The notes under the pieces: model-generated
The model's input: the letters and a program-made list of their open reading frames with translations, nothing else
What the model was told of the DNA's origin: nothing
Databases searched by the model: none
DNA from: a virus
DNA length: 12,602 nt
Reading direction: 5' to 3' (one strand)
IMG/VR virus record: IMGVR_UViG_3300045988_094612
Location: 1-12,602 of that record
Translations under genes and position numbers: made by a program
Shown here: one piece after another, positions 1,846 to 12,602 of the stretch
How the letters are laid out: each line of letters starts with the position of its first letter
Position numbering within the stretch: the first letter of the stretch is position 1

Positions 1846-2301
1846 ATGAGATTAAAACTTACTATGAAAATCAATACAAAGGAGGTGACCTATGAAGATG
1901 AAGGCAAAAAGAAAACTTTTAAAAGCTATTACACCTATTTAAAAGTGCCATTTGAAGCACCTGAGGGTAAAGATGTATCATTTAATTTACACTTTAGGCA
2001 AGATTGTGAGAACGCGTACGGTCGTGATTTAAACGGGGTTGTTACCGCTATTGTGGATGTACCTTGGTACGTTGTAGTTAAAGAGGGTAAAAATGAAGAT
2101 TACACTAAACAAGCTAAAATGATATTAAATGAAATATACGGCAAAAAAAGATTTGAAAACATTTGGCTTCATAAAATCTTAGATTATAAACCATTTGAAG
2201 AGAAAGAAGAAAACGACGACGATTTATTAGAATTTGACACGACAAAAAAGACTAAAGACGTTGAAAACATTAAAACAACCGACGACGATTTACCATTTTA
2301 A
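1846..2301 (+). CDS. Putative single-stranded DNA-binding protein or SSB mimic (151 aa) with a duplicated SSB C-terminal acidic tip (NDDDLLEF and TDDDLPF-COOH)
   Basis: Strong SD AAAGGAGG. The C-terminus ...TTDDDLPF matches the conserved Firmicute SSB C-terminal tip (E. coli SSB ends DDDIPF). An internal second copy is encoded by the direct repeat GACGACGATTTA at 2215 and 2281. The N-terminal part is beta-rich and could be an OB fold. An SSB is expected in a protein-primed replication module. Confidence 0.45.
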   Translation: MRLKLTMKINTKEVTYEDEGKKKTFKSYYTYLKVPFEAPEGKDVSFNLHFRQDCENAYGRDLNGVVTAIVDVPWYVVVKEGKNEDYTKQAKMILNEIYGKKRFENIWLHKILDYKPFEEKEENDDDLLEFDTTKKTKDVENIKTTDDDLPF

Positions 2302-2314
2302 GGAGTTAATAAAA

Positions 2315-2569
2315 ATGACAAAAGATATTAATATAACCGATTTTTTCACTTATTTTGTAGTCAATTACAAGCAAGACACTAAATATATGGTTTATTTACT
2401 AGTATATGGAGGTGGCAAACTATATATTAATAACGATTTGACATTTACATATGAACAACCAAATAAAATGAGTTTAATCGGTGTGCTTACCTTATTTGAA
2501 GAAATAATTCAATGCGATTGTGAGAATTTATTAGATATTCTTTACATAAAGGAGGTAATTAAAGACTAA
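2315..2569 (+). CDS. Early protein (84 aa), unknown function
   Basis: The preferred start is ATG 2315 (SD AAGGAG 2300..2305, 9-nt spacing) rather than 2234, which lies inside the previous gene. The stop overlaps the next ATG (TAATG). Confidence 0.55.
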   Translation: MTKDINITDFFTYFVVNYKQDTKYMVYLLVYGGGKLYINNDLTFTYEQPNKMSLIGVLTLFEEIIQCDCENLLDILYIKEVIKD

Positions 2570-3330
2570 TGCCTAAGAGACTTAAATTAAATTTATCTTA
2601 TAACGATTTAAATAAAATGTCTCTTACTGATTTAAAAAGCTATGCCATAAAGCTTAACAACGTTGCAAACTTGAGAGTAAGAAAGCTAAGAGAATTTGCT
2701 CCTTACTCTCCCGCTTTGTCTTCATACGAACGTAGCGAGTTAGGTACTTTTAGAATTGGTAAGGACGCGGATATTAATAGCTTACGCAAAAGCGTAGCTA
2801 GGGCAAAACACTTTCTTGAAATGGAGACGAGTACAGTTAGAGGTTCTATAAATGTTACATTACGCACTTTAAAACGCTTCGGTATAGAACCTCCTGATTT
2901 TAGCAAGAAAGAAAAAAAACCAAGAGGACGACCAAAAGGTTCAAAAAATAAAATTAAAACAAACGTACCTAAAGAGAAAAAACCAAGAGGACGACCAAAA
3001 GGTTCAAAAAATAAAAACGCATATAGTCAATATATTGAGACCGTAAAATGGTTATATTCAAAGAGAGAATTATTAAAAGAGTTCTTCGACTTGTACAATA
3101 GATATAAAGATTTATACCATGGTGGCGAACTACCTAGTGATACTATTAAAGTAGGTATGGATGTATTTTTGGACCTTAAAAATGATTTATTACAAAAAGT
3201 TGGCGACGAATGGGTAAATAGAGAAACGGGAGAAATAGTAGACCGAGACCAAATATTCTTTGATATTATGAATCAAAAAATAGAGAGAATGCACGACTAT
3301 ATTTATAGCTCATACAATCAATATAACTAA
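2569..3330 (+). CDS. Putative terminal protein (253 aa) carrying two tandem AT-hook motifs (KKPRGRPKGSKNK x2)
   Basis: It sits immediately upstream of, and is coupled to, the protein-primed DNA polymerase, as in phi29 gene 3 / gene 2. Its size is similar to phi29 TP (266 aa). By eye it resembles phi29 TP around YHGGELPSDTI (phi29 YAGGKPQGTI). RGRP is the AT-hook core. There is a Ser/Tyr-rich C-terminus. Confidence 0.5.
   Translation: MPKRLKLNLSYNDLNKMSLTDLKSYAIKLNNVANLRVRKLREFAPYSPALSSYERSELGTFRIGKDADINSLRKSVARAKHFLEMETSTVRGSINVTLRTLKRFGIEPPDFSKKEKKPRGRPKGSKNKIKTNVPKEKKPRGRPKGSKNKNAYSQYIETVKWLYSKRELLKEFFDLYNRYKDLYHGGELPSDTIKVGMDVFLDLKNDLLQKVGDEWVNRETGEIVDRDQIFFDIMNQKIERMHDYIYSSYNQYN
2913..3017 (+). 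repeat. Roughly 40-bp direct repeat, two copies 63 bp apart, encoding the two AT-hook units
   Basis: AAAAAACCAAGAGGACGACCAAAAGGTTCAAAAAATAAAA occurs at about 2915..2954 and 2977..3016. Confidence 0.85.
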
Positions 3331-3332
3331 TT

Positions 3333-5420
3333 ATGAAACAATACAATACGATTAAGGAGTGTTTAGCAAATGTAAAAAACTTTAAAACATACAAAAAAAG
3401 ACATAGAGATAAATACTTTAATAATCGTATTTGCTTTGACATTGAAGTATCTAGTTTCTATGTTGAAGGTATTGAAAAAGAACTAACTAAAAGAGCATGT
3501 TGTTACGCTTATATTTTTGGTATCGACGGCAATTATAAAATCGGTAGAAGCTTAGAAGAATTTATAAAAGACGTTGATTATCTTGAGTATGTTATGCATA
3601 AAAAAGACCCTGAAGCACATATAGTTATATGGATCCACAACTTAGCATATGAGTTTCAGTTTATTAGAAAGTATTTTGAGATACAGGAAATTTTAGCAAA
3701 CGACGAGAGAAAGATTATATACGCAGTTACTAAAAATAATATCGAGTTTAGATGTAGCTATATGTTGAGTGGATACTCTTTACGTAAAGTAGGAGAAAAT
3801 CTAAGACACCATACCGCTAAAAAAATGGTAGGAGATTTAGACTATTCCTTATTAAGAGGATCTACAACTCCACTAACTGAAAAAGAAATCGGATATATCA
3901 GGGAAGACTACGAGGTATTAGACAACTACATTGAAGAAGAACTCGAAACTTATCAATATATCTCACGATTACCATTAACTAAAACGGGTAAAGTAAGAAA
4001 GTTTTGTCGTAAAGTTTGCAATGAAAAAGGCGACTATAGAAAAAGATTTATTAAAAATCTTGTTATTAACGACGCTCAAGAATATATGCTTATGCGACGT
4101 GCTTTCATGGGAGGCTTTACACATGCTAACTCATTGGCTGTTAATAACTTAATTAGAGATGTAACATCTATCGACTTTACTAGCTCTTATCCCGCCGTTA
4201 TGGTGAGTGAGATGTTCCCTATGAGTCGAGGTCAAATAATAGAGATTAAATCTTTAGACCAAATAAAAGAATTATCTAAAAGAAACTGTCTTATATTTGA
4301 TATAGAGTTTTGGGATTTAGAAAGTACTTTTATTTATGAGTCTTATTTGTCAAGTTCACATGGTATCACTGAGGGAGCTACGACGATAAACAATGGTAGA
4401 ATAGTTATGACTAAATATTTAAAAACTACAATAACTAACATAGATTTAGATATAATAGAGAAAGTTTATAAATGGACTAAATGTAAAATAGGTTTGTGCT
4501 ACGTTTATAAAAAATGGTACCTCCCTACTACATTTGTAAAAAGTATCTTAATGTTATATAAAGACAAAACAACTTTAAAAGGTATTGACGACAAGATAGC
4601 CGAATACATGAATTCCAAAGAAATGTTAAACTCTTGTTATGGTATGACTGTTACTGATATTATTAAACCTGAGGTAGAATATGACGACGAGGAGGGGTGG
4701 CATACCGAAGAAATGACACTCGATAAACGAGGAGAATTAGTAGAAAAGTATAACAATCAGCGCTCAAGGTTTTTATTCTATCCATGGGGTGTTTTTATCA
4801 CAGCATATGCTAGGCGGAACCTGTGGTCAGGTATTTTAGAATTTGGAGAAGATTACTGCTATAGTGATACCGACTCGATCAAAGGAATTAATTATAAAAA
4901 ACATAAGAATTATGTTGATAAATACAACGATATATGTTATCATAAATTAGAGGTAGCAATGAGTTATCATAAACTTGATATATCATTGTGCGCTCCGACA
5001 ACTATAAAAGGAGAAAAGAAAATCATAGGCGTTTGGGATTATGACGGTCATTATGATATGTTCAAAACTTTAGGAGCTAAACGCTATATGGTATATAACA
5101 ACAAAGGATTATCATTAACTATATCAGGAGTTAATAAAACTAAAGCAGTACCTTATTTACTCAAAAAGTATAAAAACGATATACAACAAATATTTGATAG
5201 TTTTAGTAATGGATTTGAGGTACCCTCACCACATGCGGGCAAGCAAATTCTTACATATATTGACTATGAAACGAGCGGAGAGTTTATGGACTATTTAGGC
5301 AATAGACAAACGTATCATGAGTTAAGCTCAGTACATATGGAAGAGGGAAGCTATACATTGACAATGAGTGACGAGTACTTAAAATTCTTAGCGGAAGGAG
5401 TGAAGATAGATTATGTATAA
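3333..5420 (+). CDS. Protein-primed family-B DNA polymerase (695 aa)
   Basis: Contains Exo I FDIEV, Exo II HNLAYE (phi29 HNLKFD), Exo III YIRED, motif A DFTSSYPA (DxxSLYPS), motif B KEMLNSCYG (Kx3NSxYG), YPWGVFITAYAR (phi29 TPMGVFITAWAR), motif C YCYSDTDS (YxDTDS) and KRYMVY (KxY). The N-terminus YKIGRSLEEFI matches phi29 YKIGNSLDEFM. There is no SD; the start is 2 nt after the TP stop, suggesting coupling. Confidence 0.95.
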   Translation: MKQYNTIKECLANVKNFKTYKKRHRDKYFNNRICFDIEVSSFYVEGIEKELTKRACCYAYIFGIDGNYKIGRSLEEFIKDVDYLEYVMHKKDPEAHIVIWIHNLAYEFQFIRKYFEIQEILANDERKIIYAVTKNNIEFRCSYMLSGYSLRKVGENLRHHTAKKMVGDLDYSLLRGSTTPLTEKEIGYIREDYEVLDNYIEEELETYQYISRLPLTKTGKVRKFCRKVCNEKGDYRKRFIKNLVINDAQEYMLMRRAFMGGFTHANSLAVNNLIRDVTSIDFTSSYPAVMVSEMFPMSRGQIIEIKSLDQIKELSKRNCLIFDIEFWDLESTFIYESYLSSSHGITEGATTINNGRIVMTKYLKTTITNIDLDIIEKVYKWTKCKIGLCYVYKKWYLPTTFVKSILMLYKDKTTLKGIDDKIAEYMNSKEMLNSCYGMTVTDIIKPEVEYDDEEGWHTEEMTLDKRGELVEKYNNQRSRFLFYPWGVFITAYARRNLWSGILEFGEDYCYSDTDSIKGINYKKHKNYVDKYNDICYHKLEVAMSYHKLDISLCAPTTIKGEKKIIGVWDYDGHYDMFKTLGAKRYMVYNNKGLSLTISGVNKTKAVPYLLKKYKNDIQQIFDSFSNGFEVPSPHAGKQILTYIDYETSGEFMDYLGNRQTYHELSSVHMEEGSYTLTMSDEYLKFLAEGVKIDYV

Positions 5421-6658: not shown

Positions 6659-6898
6659 TTGATAGTCTTAACAGGAACTGTGGGAATACAACAAATCGAG
6701 TCTATTATAGGAATTATTAGTGTATCTTTATCAGTTCTATGGATTTTGTTCAAGTTGGCCTTAAAAGTGTACCAAGCTCTTAAGAATAAAGACTATAGCA
6801 ACTTAGAGAACAACATTAATAAGACTAAAGAAGAACTCGACAAGATTAAAGAAGACTTAGAAAGCAGGAGAGAAAATGGCGGACAAGATACCGAATAG
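6659..6898 (+). CDS. Small membrane protein (79 aa): an N-terminal transmembrane helix plus a charged coiled-coil tail. Candidate holin.
   Basis: The hydrophobic segment IIGIISVSLSVLWILFKLAL is followed by a K/E-rich C-terminus. The ORF has no in-frame ATG, so the start is presumably TTG 6659 (no SD) or GTG 6680. Its stop overlaps the connector gene start. Confidence 0.4.
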   Translation: MIVLTGTVGIQQIESIIGIISVSLSVLWILFKLALKVYQALKNKDYSNLENNINKTKEELDKIKEDLESRRENGGQDTE

Positions 6899-7889
6899 GC
6901 AAGATTGGAGTTATGAAAAATTATTAGGTTGTAATAGAAACCCATTGAAAGACAAAGAGCGCTTAGTATGTCAACACAAAAGTTACATGTTATCACGTCT
7001 TAATCAGTTGTTTGAATGGGACGGCTTACCAGAGACAATACCACAAAAAGAGTTTGAATGGATATTATTAATGCAGGGCAAAGCAACTATTGCCGACGTA
7101 CCTAACAAAGGCTTATATGCTTTTCAATCCAACTTAGGAGGTATCTTGAACCCTTACTACTTACCTACTCAGTCAATTGTAGTCAATCCTTACTTACCAT
7201 TTAACAAGGTACTTGAGGTTGATAAAGATTGTGTTGTAATTCGTAACACTTCAACATTTACTCCTATTAATGATATGTTAGATTTATACGCTAACATGCT
7301 AGCCGAGATTGATATATCTTTAAGAATTGCTACCGTTAATAGTCGTATTAGTTCTCTTATATCCGTAGGAGACGAAGCGACCAAAGATAGTGCTACGAAG
7401 TTCTTAGAAGATATAGAAAAAGGCAAGCTAGGAGTTATAGCTACTAACAAATTCATGGAGAGTCTTAAAGGTGGTCTTAATGCAATTCAATATGCAGGTA
7501 CTATTAGTAACATTCAGGACCTTATAGAATTAAGACAGTACATCTTAGCTACGTGGTTTAACCAACTTGGCTTAAACGCTAACTATAATATGAAACGTGA
7601 AGCTATCAACGAGAGCGAGGCTGATTTAAACGAAGAGGCTTTAATGCCATTGATAGACGATATGTTGCAATGTAGACAAGAGGGAGCCGAGAAAGTTAAT
7701 GCTATGTTTGGTACTAATCTTAGTGTTAAACTCAACTCTTCATGGAAGCTCCAAAGAAAAGAAATAGAAACATCTATGGAACTTGCCGAGAAAGAATTAA
7801 ATACCGAAGAAAACGAAGAAACACAAGAAGAGGGAGAAAGTAAGGAAGAACCAACCGAAGACAAGGATAAAGAAAATGATAACGATTAA
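6876..7889 (+). CDS. Head-tail connector / portal protein, phi29 gp10-like (337 aa) with an acidic C-terminal tail
   Basis: LSRLNQLFEWDGLPETIP matches phi29 connector LAYQLFEWENLPPTI. The size is similar (phi29 309 aa). SD AGGAGA upstream. Confidence 0.8.
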   Translation: MADKIPNRQDWSYEKLLGCNRNPLKDKERLVCQHKSYMLSRLNQLFEWDGLPETIPQKEFEWILLMQGKATIADVPNKGLYAFQSNLGGILNPYYLPTQSIVVNPYLPFNKVLEVDKDCVVIRNTSTFTPINDMLDLYANMLAEIDISLRIATVNSRISSLISVGDEATKDSATKFLEDIEKGKLGVIATNKFMESLKGGLNAIQYAGTISNIQDLIELRQYILATWFNQLGLNANYNMKREAINESEADLNEEALMPLIDDMLQCRQEGAEKVNAMFGTNLSVKLNSSWKLQRKEIETSMELAEKELNTEENEETQEEGESKEEPTEDKDKENDND

Positions 7890-8652
7890 AGATTATTTTG
7901 AACCATTAATGATGGACGATACCGAGGAAACAACCGGAATATTTAGAGCACTTGAAGAGGTAGTAAAAAGTCTAACTACACCTGACGAGATTTTAACAAA
8001 AATCTTTGATGGTAAAGGTAGTGTACTTGATATGGACTATGTCTATACACACGCATACTCTAAATGGTGTGCTTTTATACTAGAGAGATTAACTGAGTTT
8101 GTTAAAACTCTAATGCCATCTATTAGTGACAATAGAGCAAAAGTACTTACATTAGGAACACAAATCGCACCGTTATTATTAACTCGTTTCTCCGAGATTT
8201 GGAAGAAAAAGTATGTAGCTATTACCGCCGATTACACTCCAACAAACGACTACAAAGAGAATGAGAAAGTTGATTACACTTCCCACGGTGTTGATACTCC
8301 TCAAACTACTACAACGAGTAAAACGAGTACTGACACTACTCAGTCAACTAGTGTAACTCAAAATGCTAATACATATGCTTTTGATAGTATAAGTGAGACT
8401 CCTACCGCTCTCAACACAGGTGACCAAAGTGTCAATAGTACGGGTGCTCCTGATAAAAACTATACTGAGACTACCACAGGTGGAACCAATACAAGTGATG
8501 TCAACAGCACTAACACAATCACTAGGGAGGGAAAACACGGCTCAACCAACTATAGTGTATTAATTGAAAACGAGCTTAAACTACGTGAATACGATTTTTA
8601 TCAAGAGATGTTCAAAGATATTGATAGTATATTAACGTTATCAATTTATTAG
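7876..8652 (+). CDS. Structural protein (258 aa): a helical N-terminal half and a Thr/Ser/Asn-rich low-complexity C-terminal half. Possible lower-collar or head-fibre analogue.
   Basis: ORF coupled to the connector gene (start lies within the connector's last codons). About 110 residues are greater than 45% T/S/N. There is no recognisable motif; the assignment rests on position only. Confidence 0.4.
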   Translation: MITIKDYFEPLMMDDTEETTGIFRALEEVVKSLTTPDEILTKIFDGKGSVLDMDYVYTHAYSKWCAFILERLTEFVKTLMPSISDNRAKVLTLGTQIAPLLLTRFSEIWKKKYVAITADYTPTNDYKENEKVDYTSHGVDTPQTTTTSKTSTDTTQSTSVTQNANTYAFDSISETPTALNTGDQSVNSTGAPDKNYTETTTGGTNTSDVNSTNTITREGKHGSTNYSVLIENELKLREYDFYQEMFKDIDSILTLSIY

Positions 8653-10468: not shown

Positions 10469-10690
10469 ATGAAATTAAAAGAAGTCTTAAAATTAATTAA
10501 CAATGAATTTATTAATTATACAATATACCGTGATAAAAAAGTTGTTGCTCACTTTTCTACAAGATACCAAAAAGAAGTAGAAGAGATAACAAGAAGATAC
10601 GGACACTATAACGTTACAAATATTGGAGCTTTCATAACTTGTGACTATGAATGTGTTGTGTCATTAACACTTGAGGAAGTATTGTTATGA
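10469..10690 (+). CDS. Small protein (73 aa), unknown function
   Basis: Good SD AAAAAGGAGA 7 nt upstream. ATGA overlap with the downstream tail gene. Confidence 0.55.
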   Translation: MKLKEVLKLINNEFINYTIYRDKKVVAHFSTRYQKEVEEITRRYGHYNVTNIGAFITCDYECVVSLTLEEVLL

Positions 10691-12519
10691 AGATAACTTT
10701 ATACCAAAATGTTAGTGAACATAACCAAATGGACAAGGATTTAACTAAAGTTAAAGATATTGACGGTAAGTTTAAACAATCCACTAATATTATGAGTCCT
10801 GTATTAGTATTGAGTTATGCAACACTTCCCGATTTTAATTATATATATATTGAAGAATTAGCTCGATATTATTTTGTTGACAGTATCACAAGTATTAACG
10901 AAGGGATATGGCAAATCAATTGTAGTGAGGATGTATTAGAGACTTACGGGATCGGGATATTAAATCTTACGGCATATGTAACTAGAAATGAAAATGAATA
11001 TAATGATTATATTATAGATAAATATCTTATAAAAACAGCTAAAAAACTATATGATATTATTACACCATTAGAAAATGAGACCGACGGAAGAAATTTATTT
11101 TTAAACAATAACACCTTTAATATAGATTTTACACATGATGGCGCCCCTGCGGAGCTATCTAGTGTAACGGACTCTTTTTGTTATACTATCTCAACTAGCA
11201 ATATGACTGGAGGCCCAATTTTATTTGACCCTGAAACAGGAGTACCTACAAGCTTAGATTATATGCAAGCTAGTATAGATAATAATCAATATTCCAAATA
11301 TGGTGTTACTCAATGGGGTAAACAATTTTATCACGATGGCTTTAATAAAGTATGGGCTTTAAATAATAATAACTTACAAGCTATAGGTTCTTTACTCAAA
11401 GCAAAAGTTACAGATGTAGAAAGTGGAAGAATGTATGAAAATCTAGGTCAAATGATAAATGGATTAAAAGTATATCCATTTTCTATACCTGAGTATTTTT
11501 ATCTATGTGGTATAAGTGTAGATAAACTACCACAAGGTAATTATGCGGATTACATGAAAAAAAAACAAGGAGATAACAAAAACATACAACCTATTACAAT
11601 AGGTAACACCGCAATTGAAAATCTAGTCACTTCCGAAAAAAACACTATAGGCCAATCAGCTAACTTATATGGTGCTCCACAATTAACAGGTTGGTTATTA
11701 CCGCACCAAATAATGAGTTGCAAACTAGCTACCTTTGGTTTTGATAATGACGCTATATTATACAATAATTATCTTGATTATGAACCTTATACACAATTAC
11801 AACTTTATGTTCCGTTCTTCGGTTATATAACTATTCCTACAAATGTAGTAATAGGTAACAAAATATATTTATATTTATCGGTAGATTTTATAACGGGACT
11901 AGGAACATTATATATCACAGTAGATATAAATGGTAAAGAAACTTTAATTAATACTCAAAATAGTAAAATTGCTTATGACCTCGCTTATGGTTCTACAAAT
12001 ATAAATGAATTAGAAAGACTAACCGAATTAACCAAATCTAGGGATGCGAACAGGACAATAAGTAACATAGTAGGGAATGCATTAAGTGTTCTAACAGCTA
12101 TACCAATTGGTACGGTAAATCCAATCGCAGGAGTTACAATGGGTTTAAGTGCTTTAGTCAATACCGCACGAGGAAGTTTTAGCGATATAACTACTTATTT
12201 TAATGATGTAGACTCCAGCGCTACGACTCCTTTAAATGGTAATACCGTTTCGGGGGGAGGATCCCAAAATGGGGCAAGCAATTTGATATCACCGCGTGGG
12301 ATATTTATACTAAGAGAAAGAGTAGAAGAATATAGACCAACTTCTAATTATGCTAAATTCTTAGGTAGACCGCTAGAGATACAAAAGAATATATCTAAAT
12401 TACATGGATTTACTAAAGTGGGTAGTGTTCGTATAGAGGGAGATGATTTTGCCAAAGCTACCGAGCAAGAAAAACAAACAATAGAACAAACCTTAAAAAA
12501 TGGTTTTATACTCAGGTGA
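10687..12519 (+). CDS. Tail knob / distal tail tube protein, phi29 gp9-like (610 aa)
   Basis: SPRGIFILRERVEEYR matches phi29 gp9 GYRGVYVIKKQLKAEYR (recalled). The Gly/Ala-rich hydrophobic segment NALSVLTAIPIGTVNPIAGVTMGLSALVNTA is analogous to the gp9 membrane-active loop. The size (phi29 599 aa) and the C-terminal pattern are similar. Confidence 0.65.
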   Translation: MKITLYQNVSEHNQMDKDLTKVKDIDGKFKQSTNIMSPVLVLSYATLPDFNYIYIEELARYYFVDSITSINEGIWQINCSEDVLETYGIGILNLTAYVTRNENEYNDYIIDKYLIKTAKKLYDIITPLENETDGRNLFLNNNTFNIDFTHDGAPAELSSVTDSFCYTISTSNMTGGPILFDPETGVPTSLDYMQASIDNNQYSKYGVTQWGKQFYHDGFNKVWALNNNNLQAIGSLLKAKVTDVESGRMYENLGQMINGLKVYPFSIPEYFYLCGISVDKLPQGNYADYMKKKQGDNKNIQPITIGNTAIENLVTSEKNTIGQSANLYGAPQLTGWLLPHQIMSCKLATFGFDNDAILYNNYLDYEPYTQLQLYVPFFGYITIPTNVVIGNKIYLYLSVDFITGLGTLYITVDINGKETLINTQNSKIAYDLAYGSTNINELERLTELTKSRDANRTISNIVGNALSVLTAIPIGTVNPIAGVTMGLSALVNTARGSFSDITTYFNDVDSSATTPLNGNTVSGGGSQNGASNLISPRGIFILRERVEEYRPTSNYAKFLGRPLEIQKNISKLHGFTKVGSVRIEGDDFAKATEQEKQTIEQTLKNGFILR

Positions 12520-12564: not shown

Positions 12565-12602
12565 AAATTCCCATCTCGCAGCGGGGGGGGGTTTGGATAT
12601 TT
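12565..12602. repeat. Right inverted terminal repeat: AATTCCCATCTCGCAGC-G10-TTTGGATATTT
   Basis: Reverse complement of 1..37, with one extra base in the homopolymer. Confidence 0.9.

Follow-up and report, generated by a model that had tools for sequence, protein, structure and literature searches.

Why would a small phage that replicates its DNA by protein priming encode a protein with the C-terminus of a bacterial SSB (single-stranded DNA-binding protein)? This question is raised by ORF151, a gene for a protein of 151 amino acids at positions 1846–2301 (stop codon, 2299–2301, included) on the plus strand of IMG/VR virus record IMGVR_UViG_3300045988_094612. The 12,602 nucleotides of the record, analysed here in full and referred to as the window, make up an entire linear genome, 12.6 kb long, phi29-like and of the protein-primed type. 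Among its products, as assigned with Pfam and PHROG, are a protein-primed family B DNA polymerase (PolB), a packaging ATPase of the Gp16 type, a connector of the phi29 type and a capsid protein (Phi29_MCP). A preliminary description, made from the letters of the sequence alone, had noted that ORF151 ends in DDDLPF, with an upstream second copy encoded by a repeat, and had proposed that the protein is either the element's own SSB or a decoy for host SSB-interacting proteins. Both motifs are indeed present. Of the two proposals the first is the best-supported reading, on the grounds of gene position and of a basic, aromatic core joined to an acidic tail. The case is circumstantial, and we put the chances as about even that ORF151 is the phage's own SSB for protein-primed strand-displacement replication, from which we infer that it binds single-stranded DNA (ssDNA).

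ORF151 as a candidate phage SSB

The position of the gene is the first argument. In phi29 the early operon has the order 6-5.5-5(SSB)-4-3(TP)-2(Pol), TP being the terminal protein, and in Bam35 it is ORF2(SSB)-ORF3-ORF4(TP)-ORF5(Pol). The window reads ORF151-ORF84-ORF253-PolB, which matches, with the small ORF84 in second place, both the phi29 series 5-4-3-2 and the Bam35 series ORF2 to ORF5. ORF151 shares with SSB genes of the PF17427 type a location upstream of TP and PolB in the probable early operon, and it is this correspondence with phi29 gene 5 and Bam35 ORF2 that suggests an SSB. Its composition points the same way: the predicted core domain (aa 1–117; 1846–2196) has a pI of 9.0 and 17 aromatic residues, and it is followed by an acidic C-terminal tail (aa 118–151; 2197–2298) with a pI of 4.05 by composition. 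Nor does ORF151 have a competitor for this role: a Pfam search with all 18 ORFs of the window gave no match to the known SSB families (PF00436 and PF17427).

We propose the following scheme. ORF151 would be transcribed early from duplicated consensus promoters, jointly with the genes for TP and PolB, and its core (aa 1–117) would coat the strand displaced during TP-primed replication. The tail (aa 118–151) carries two short motifs, each made of acidic residues, hydrophobic residues and a Phe, of which the terminal one, DDLPF-COOH, is chemically the same as the C-terminal tip of bacterial SSB (SSB-Ct). Provided that the host SSB has the same tip, DDLPF-COOH should be accommodated in the SSB-Ct pockets of those host proteins that interact with SSB. 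At the replication intermediates of the phage, the tip would thereby connect with host enzymes that process ssDNA, or compete for them. DDLLEF, the internal motif, located where PRD1 P12 has a protomer-bridging helix, would more likely serve self-interaction, cooperativity or autoinhibition.

The acidic tail and its two motifs

The tip DDDLPF (aa 146–151, ...TTDDDLPF*; 2281–2298) equals the Firmicute SSB-Ct hexapeptide and, as in canonical SSBs, presents a D-D-D-[IL]-P-F sequence with a free terminal Phe. The attribution of this form to Firmicute SSBs in the preliminary description is borne out by Streptococcus mutans SsbA, which ends DDDLPF (PMC5143411); the E. coli tip is given as DDDIPF in PMC5872125. 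Its composition, together with low pLDDT values in a full-length model and in the last residues of a model of the core, indicates that the segment aa 118–151 is probably disordered.

The second motif, DDDLLEF (aa 124–130; 2215–2235; context NDDDLLEF), stands straight after the core. It differs from the tip in being non-C-terminal, in having Leu in place of Pro and in carrying an additional Glu, and it is not a true SSB-Ct tip. Both DDDL stretches are encoded by GACGACGATTTA (2215–2226 and 2281–2292), which occurs twice in the whole window against 0.04 copies expected by chance; two copies were reached in 1 of 200 shuffles. The likeness between the two halves of the tail extends over 32 nt, with 75% identity and a register of 66 nt (repeat family D11). 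An origin by tandem duplication of a unit of about 22 codons is plausible but not proven. Given the codon usage of this genome, identical codons for D-D-D-L are expected about 6% of the time, so that the repeat adds little beyond the repeated peptide, and we rejected it as too weak to prove a duplication. The earlier idea of a duplicated tip thus holds for the peptide and for the GACGACGATTTA repeat, but not for the internal copy as a true tip, nor for duplication as an established origin.

The sequence DLLEF was also compared by eye with the beta-clamp-binding motif QL[SD]LF and rejected, as it has neither the Gln nor the fourth-position Leu. In the window and ten related loci, a scan of every stop-to-stop reading frame of 40 aa or more found no tip pattern outside the ORF151 family save in one spurious antisense frame.

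An orphan family with a variable C-terminus

ORF151 has no family match in Pfam, PHROG, NCBIfam or PDB sequences. The profile of the canonical SSB oligonucleotide/oligosaccharide-binding (OB) domain, PF00436, was not matched (E ≤ 0.1 in Pfam and NCBIfam; none in PHROG), nor was PF17427 in Pfam, and phmmer against the PDB returned only eL14, at E 0.15. There was also no homolog in the 50,697 deposited phage genomes of INPHARED, searched with tblastn and megablast. Homologs were found in large protein collections, as 45 clusters of 68–100% identity, nearly all from 12–13 kb contigs. An exhaustive HMMER profile search of 1.84 billion representatives gained only two more (P0046 and P0047), and two further profile searches gained only P0048. 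By these searches the family is closed at 48 clusters, almost exclusively in similar 12–13 kb phages, and none of its members is annotated. Residues K12, K26, Y28, T30, Y31, F50, N63, D71, K100 and I106 are invariant across the divergent family; the Lys, Tyr and Phe among them, in a basic aromatic core with an acidic tail, are consistent with an SSB.

The close-family consensus ends T-DDLPF. Thirty-eight of the 45 clusters end [DEN]-[DG]-LPF, 35 of those in DDLPF, and the third Asp of the window's DDDLPF is a minority variant. At one locus (L014) the tip codons have changed synonymously, GAC to GAT and TTT to TTC, and the peptide is identical. The retention of the tip in most clusters, with synonymous variation and in a form equal to Firmicute SSB-Ct, again argues for an SSB. 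Conservation of the internal motif equals or exceeds that of the tip, with no variation at L127 and 90% or more at L128, E129 and F130. One subclade, of 5 clusters, has undergone a deletion of ten codons; its acidic residues have been replaced (NNLPF or NDLPF) and its stop codon has been lost (TAA GGAG to TTA GAG), with the Phe now followed by LEIIK. This subclade still carries the internal motif. In a separate case (L016, IMGVR_UViG_3300045988_140642, ~3040–3058), one additional A in a homopolymer truncates the homolog to ...DVEKH*, with DDLPF still encoded downstream, which reflects either an error in sequencing or a frameshift that arose very recently.

The divergent members differ mainly in the tail. 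P0046, which is 32% identical to ORF151 and occupies the same gene position in a 12.3-kb phage (L005), ends NDFVF. P0047 and P0048 (112–115 aa) are homologs of the core without an acidic tail. The P0047 locus is an unrelated, 18%-GC phage fragment (L007) with genes for a DUF5906 primase/helicase and a PDDEXK nuclease. The presence of a tail-less homolog in such a DNA-replication neighbourhood shows that the core functions without the tail and supports the assignment of ORF151 as an SSB. On the same fragment, directly adjoining the gene for P0047, is a clear homolog (1327–1632) of window ORF110 (707–1039), and the ORF110 and ORF151-core genes may travel as a pair.

More distant 12-kb phages of the clade, with capsid proteins 44–51% identical, also have small proteins upstream of TP-PolB. 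When the family hidden Markov model (HMM) was run against the 440 ORFs of the collected loci, these positional equivalents ranked next after the family (L025, E 1.3e-3; L023, 6e-3; two tandem copies in L022, 7e-3 and 2.6e-2), with noise from E > 1. The L007 protein encoded at 1327–1632, by sequence a homolog of ORF110 and not of ORF151, scored likewise (E 0.0095). Because the equivalents reached only 9–14 bits and hhalign was not significant (probability 0.8%), their kinship with ORF151 is suggestive only. The tandem proteins of L022 (10923–11234 and 11265–11543, minus strand; 92–103 aa; genome 40% GC) lie upstream of TP-PolB, end ...SMDDFV and are possibly very distant ORF151 homologs. The acidic tails of the distant equivalents differ, reading ...EEYRDTSMDDFV in L022 and L023 and ...FLVDEEEQEETIIG in L025. 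Taken over all distant relatives, the ending is NDFVF (L005), MDDFV (L022 and L023) or an acidic tail that lacks aromatic residues, and some proteins are tail-less. The combination of a basic, beta-rich core and an acidic tail seems to be ancestral, and the exact DDLPF tip specific to the window's subfamily.

Predicted fold of the core

A full-length AF2 model from a shallow alignment reached a pLDDT of only 42 and was discarded. A model of aa 1–122 built from all 48 sequences gave a pLDDT of 86.1 and a pTM of 0.73. It predicts strands at 2–18, 21–33, 43–55 and 64–71, a helix at 84–98 and a last strand at 104–116, an order of b1-b2-b3-b4-alpha-b5. In a canonical OB fold five strands close into a beta-barrel, and the helix that caps it comes between strands 3 and 4. 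A fold prediction, which the preliminary description had suggested as a check for an OB fold, yields a confident core of five strands plus a helix, but with the helix outside the canonical position. We describe the modelled core as distantly OB-like, and not as a demonstrated OB fold. Foldseek searches with the model against BFVD and the PDB returned nothing significant, and hhalign detected no relationship with phi29 p5, PRD1 P12 or Bam35 SSB (probability <0.1%; for the PF17427 group, p5 and Bam35 SSB, 0.05% and 0.08%).

Comparison with known SSBs

ORF151 resembles bacterial SSB (PF00436) in having a core of nucleic acid-binding type, an acidic and probably disordered tail, and an identical DDDLPF end. 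It differs in the missing PF00436 match, in the only distant likeness of its core to the OB fold, with a helix that is non-canonical, in a linker of about 30 aa that has no Gly/Pro/Gln-rich region, and in the second, internal tip-like motif. On the canonical SSBs of phages and plasmids a host-type tip is the norm. The SSB of phage T7, gp2.5, joins a core of OB type to an acidic tail and needs the terminal Phe of that tail to bind its partners; the sequence of the tail is not that of an SSB-Ct, and the partners are the polymerase and helicase of T7 itself. We detected no sequence or structural match between gp2.5 and ORF151.

Among protein-primed phages, phi29 p5 and Bam35 SSB (PF17427) belong to the same kind of replication system, and ORF151 is like them in lying upstream of TP-PolB. 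The proteins of this group are small, with five strands plus a helix, and have been called 'atypical', being only remotely OB-like (PMC8276246). PRD1 P12 is the SSB of a protein-primed tectivirus, with cryo-EM and crystal structures (NAR 2025; PMC11886824), and showed no sequence or structural similarity to ORF151. Unlike ORF151, p5 and Bam35 SSB have no acidic SSB-Ct-like tip. The earlier remark that p5 has no such tip is correct, as p5 ends ...SLQLSL, and P12 and Bam35 SSB are likewise tipless.

A precedent is Bas52_0087, a non-canonical SSB-like trigger of DRT10 with a disordered C-terminus and an FDDDIPF tip, which has been proposed to interface with host ssDNA-processing enzymes such as ExoI (bioRxiv 10.64898/2026.04.29.721553). 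Like ORF151, it is a non-canonical SSB-like phage protein that ends in an SSB tip, and as such it lends support to our assignment. It is also much larger (residues >350 are cited), has two OB folds and the IPF form of the tip, and comes from an E. coli BASEL phage. Against this background, three things are new: an orphan, distantly OB-like family in the SSB slot of the smallest phi29-like phages, a tip of SSB-Ct type, the first within a replication module of the protein-primed kind, and a second tip-like motif inside the tail.

Evidence on the host

A search of species-representative genomes with the profile of ORF151 gave no match. The capsid protein matched only phage contigs mis-binned into metagenome-assembled genomes (MAGs) of unrelated taxa. 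Complete 12-kb contigs of the clade (L022–L026) are binned in MAGs of Oscillospiraceae, Muribaculaceae, Staphylococcaceae and the archaeon Methanobrevibacter; these labels are binning artefacts and hence not usable as host evidence. The GC content of 31.5%, the Shine-Dalgarno (SD) motifs (SD-like before 13 of the 18 window genes) and the sigma-70 promoters fit Firmicutes and similar bacteria, and argue against Bacteroidota. The nearest relatives of PolB are Astrithrvirus polymerases, at ~43% identity, and those of Firmicute phages reach at most ~34%. These closest polymerases come from astrithr-like phages of Salmonella, Enterobacter, Acinetobacter, Vibrio and Pectobacterium, in which we found neither an ORF151 homolog nor a tip-bearing ORF.

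Weighing the SSB reading against alternatives

Several points count against the idea that ORF151 is an SSB with a host-type tip. It has no sequence or profile similarity to phi29 p5, Bam35 SSB or PRD1 P12, and its modelled helix falls between strands 4 and 5, not 3 and 4. The tip of one subclade has decayed to a non-terminal, non-acidic form (NNLPF-LEIIK), and neither NDFVF nor MDDFV, the endings of the putative distant relatives, is an SSB-Ct sequence. Astrithr-like phages do without an ORF151 homolog, so the protein is not universally needed in the clade. To call DDDLPF 'host-type' is a reasonable assumption and no more, given that the nearest polymerases are from phages of Gram-negative bacteria. 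Finally, phi29-type replication in vitro needs no host SSB partners, and given this independence a host-type tip has no obvious benefit. We hold only tentatively, and as rather unlikely, the more specific proposal that a protein-primed phage evolved an unrelated OB-like SSB with two SSB-Ct-like motifs, by which it plugs its replication intermediates into the host SSB interactome or shields them from it.

One alternative keeps ORF151 as a phage SSB but makes the tail phage-internal and its likeness to SSB-Ct convergent. The tail might dock on a neighbouring protomer to give a cooperative filament, fold back on the basic core as an autoinhibitory element, or contact PolB or TP, much as T7 gp2.5 touches the T7 DNA polymerase with its terminal Phe. 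We regard this as possible, though not probable. In P12 the segment right after the 122-aa core bridges protomers and a disordered tail adds cooperativity (PMC11886824), and in ORF151 DDLLEF stands at aa 124–130, straight after a core of P12-like size. Consistent with such a role, the internal motif is conserved no less than the tip and survives its decay, and the low-confidence full-length model places LLEF in a short strand. The endings of the relatives, NDFVF in L005 and MDDFV in L022 and L023, are acidic and aromatic without being SSB-Ct-like, which suggests that the ancestral role was not host mimicry; together with the subclade of decayed tips and the P12 precedent they argue for a tail that was originally phage-internal. 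However, DDLPF matches the last five residues of Firmicute SSBs exactly, Pro included, and a peptide identical to that of the host would bind host partners whether or not it was selected to do so. For a phage-internal role the internal DDLLEF is a better candidate than the tip.

The decoy proposed in the preliminary description would mainly present one or two SSB-Ct-like peptides in high copy and titrate host SSB-interacting proteins, with ssDNA binding secondary or absent. Exonucleases, RecQ/RecJ, PriA or SSB-reading defence systems would in this way be drawn from host SSB or from phage DNA. An exact SSB-Ct tip with a second, similar motif would suit this role, as would early expression signals and a strong ribosome-binding site; there is also the precedent of a tip-bearing SSB-like phage protein proposed to interfere with host ExoI/SbcB. 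SSB-Ct pockets, however, recognise a free carboxylate, which the internal motif cannot present, and one subclade has lost the tip. Furthermore, the basic and aromatic character of the core and its OB-like model point to nucleic acid binding. The core is also conserved by itself, and in P0047 and P0048 it has no tail at all, the former lying in the replication region of another phage; this makes a pure decoy less likely. We consider it distinctly improbable.

Less probable again is that ORF151 is a different early DNA-binding protein and not an SSB, either a transcription regulator or an analogue of phi29 p6 that organises double-stranded DNA or origins. Gene order in small phages is plastic, p6 is encoded in the same early operon as the phi29 SSB, just upstream of gene 5, and no sequence evidence links ORF151 to p5 rather than to p6. 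Like ORF151, p6 has an acidic C-terminal tail. According to PMC10899789, p6 organises the genome and activates replication. Very unlikely indeed is a C-terminal LPF that serves as a ClpXP degradation tag limiting the lifetime of ORF151: LPF suffices for ClpXP-dependent degradation of SsbA, SsbB and GFP fusions in some S. mutans strains, but the effect is strain-specific, absent in E. coli and other streptococci and not reproduced in vitro (PMC5143411), and it leaves the acidic residues and the internal motif unexplained.

Genome organisation around ORF151

The genome is bounded by inverted terminal repeats of 37 nt (1–37 and 12566–12602; repeat I1), which are 100% complementary and contain a C9/G9 run (AAATATCCAAACCCCCCCCCGCTGCGAGATGGGAATT). 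Upstream of ORF151, and like it on the plus strand, are two perfect sigma-70 consensus promoters, TTGACA-17-TATAAT, at 208–236 (12/12 match) and 580–608. They sit 372 nt apart in a 100-nt direct repeat (D1; 169–268 and 541–640) that is 98% identical. We found no terminator-like site between these promoters and PolB. The duplicated promoters therefore probably drive an early operon in which ORF151 is co-transcribed with the replication genes. The gene itself is preceded by a Shine-Dalgarno sequence, AAGGAGG (1830–1836), 9 nt before its ATG.

Between ORF151 and the TP gene lies the small ORF84 (2315–2569; plus strand, as are the TP and PolB genes), which L012 and L005 lack and of which L011 has lost a part. 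Since it is dispensable, the conserved module is ORF151-TP-PolB, and ORF84 is not a conserved counterpart of phi29 p4. The putative terminal protein, ORF253 (2569–3330; 253 aa), was assigned by its position directly upstream of PolB. It has no family match in Pfam, PHROG or NCBIfam; it is 40% identical to its L005 equivalent (E 1e-54) and 32% identical over 85 aa to Salmonella phage astrithr gp02. ORF253 contains a tandem PRGRPKGSK repeat (KEKKPRGRPKGSKNK; 2908–2953 and 2971–3016) with an AT-hook-like RGRP, both copies of which are kept in L005; through this repeat the terminal protein may bind DNA or the nucleoid. The PolB gene follows at 3333–5420 (PF03175, E 1.9e-11; phrog_1907, E 5.6e-62).

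Elsewhere in the window, two paralogous tandem small ORFs (1271–1519, 82 aa; 1555–1788, 77 aa) have a coiled-coil-like look, a 266-nt register (D5, D7, D10 and D14) and no family match. The ORF at 6659–6898 resembles a small membrane or holin-like protein, and no endolysin was recognisable by Pfam among the 18 window ORFs. Neither the ORF at 7876–8652 nor the last gene (10687–12519; 610 aa) has a family match.

Implications

To our knowledge the SSBs of protein-primed phages (phi29 p5, Bam35 SSB and PRD1 P12) are structurally idiosyncratic, and none is known to contact host proteins. A further unrelated family, in the smallest tailed phages and with exactly the bacterial SSB tip at its end, would mean that the TP-PolB-adjacent SSB slot has been filled repeatedly by different OB-like proteins, and that a self-sufficient replication system may nonetheless exploit or block the host SSB interactome. 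Should ORF151 act on that interactome, access of ExoI, RecJ or RecQ to the displaced strand could be blocked, or defences that monitor SSB and ssDNA could be evaded, and the internal motif would offer a second place for docking, away from the C-terminus. ORF151 would then be the first case of protein-primed replication linked with the hub that host SSB forms, and a bivalent mimic of SSB-Ct that occurs naturally. At 151 aa, it could serve minimal protein-primed replication systems as a compact tool, and it could be a natural probe or inhibitor of SSB-Ct pockets. For the orphan family of 48 clusters as a whole, the assignment offers a testable annotation.
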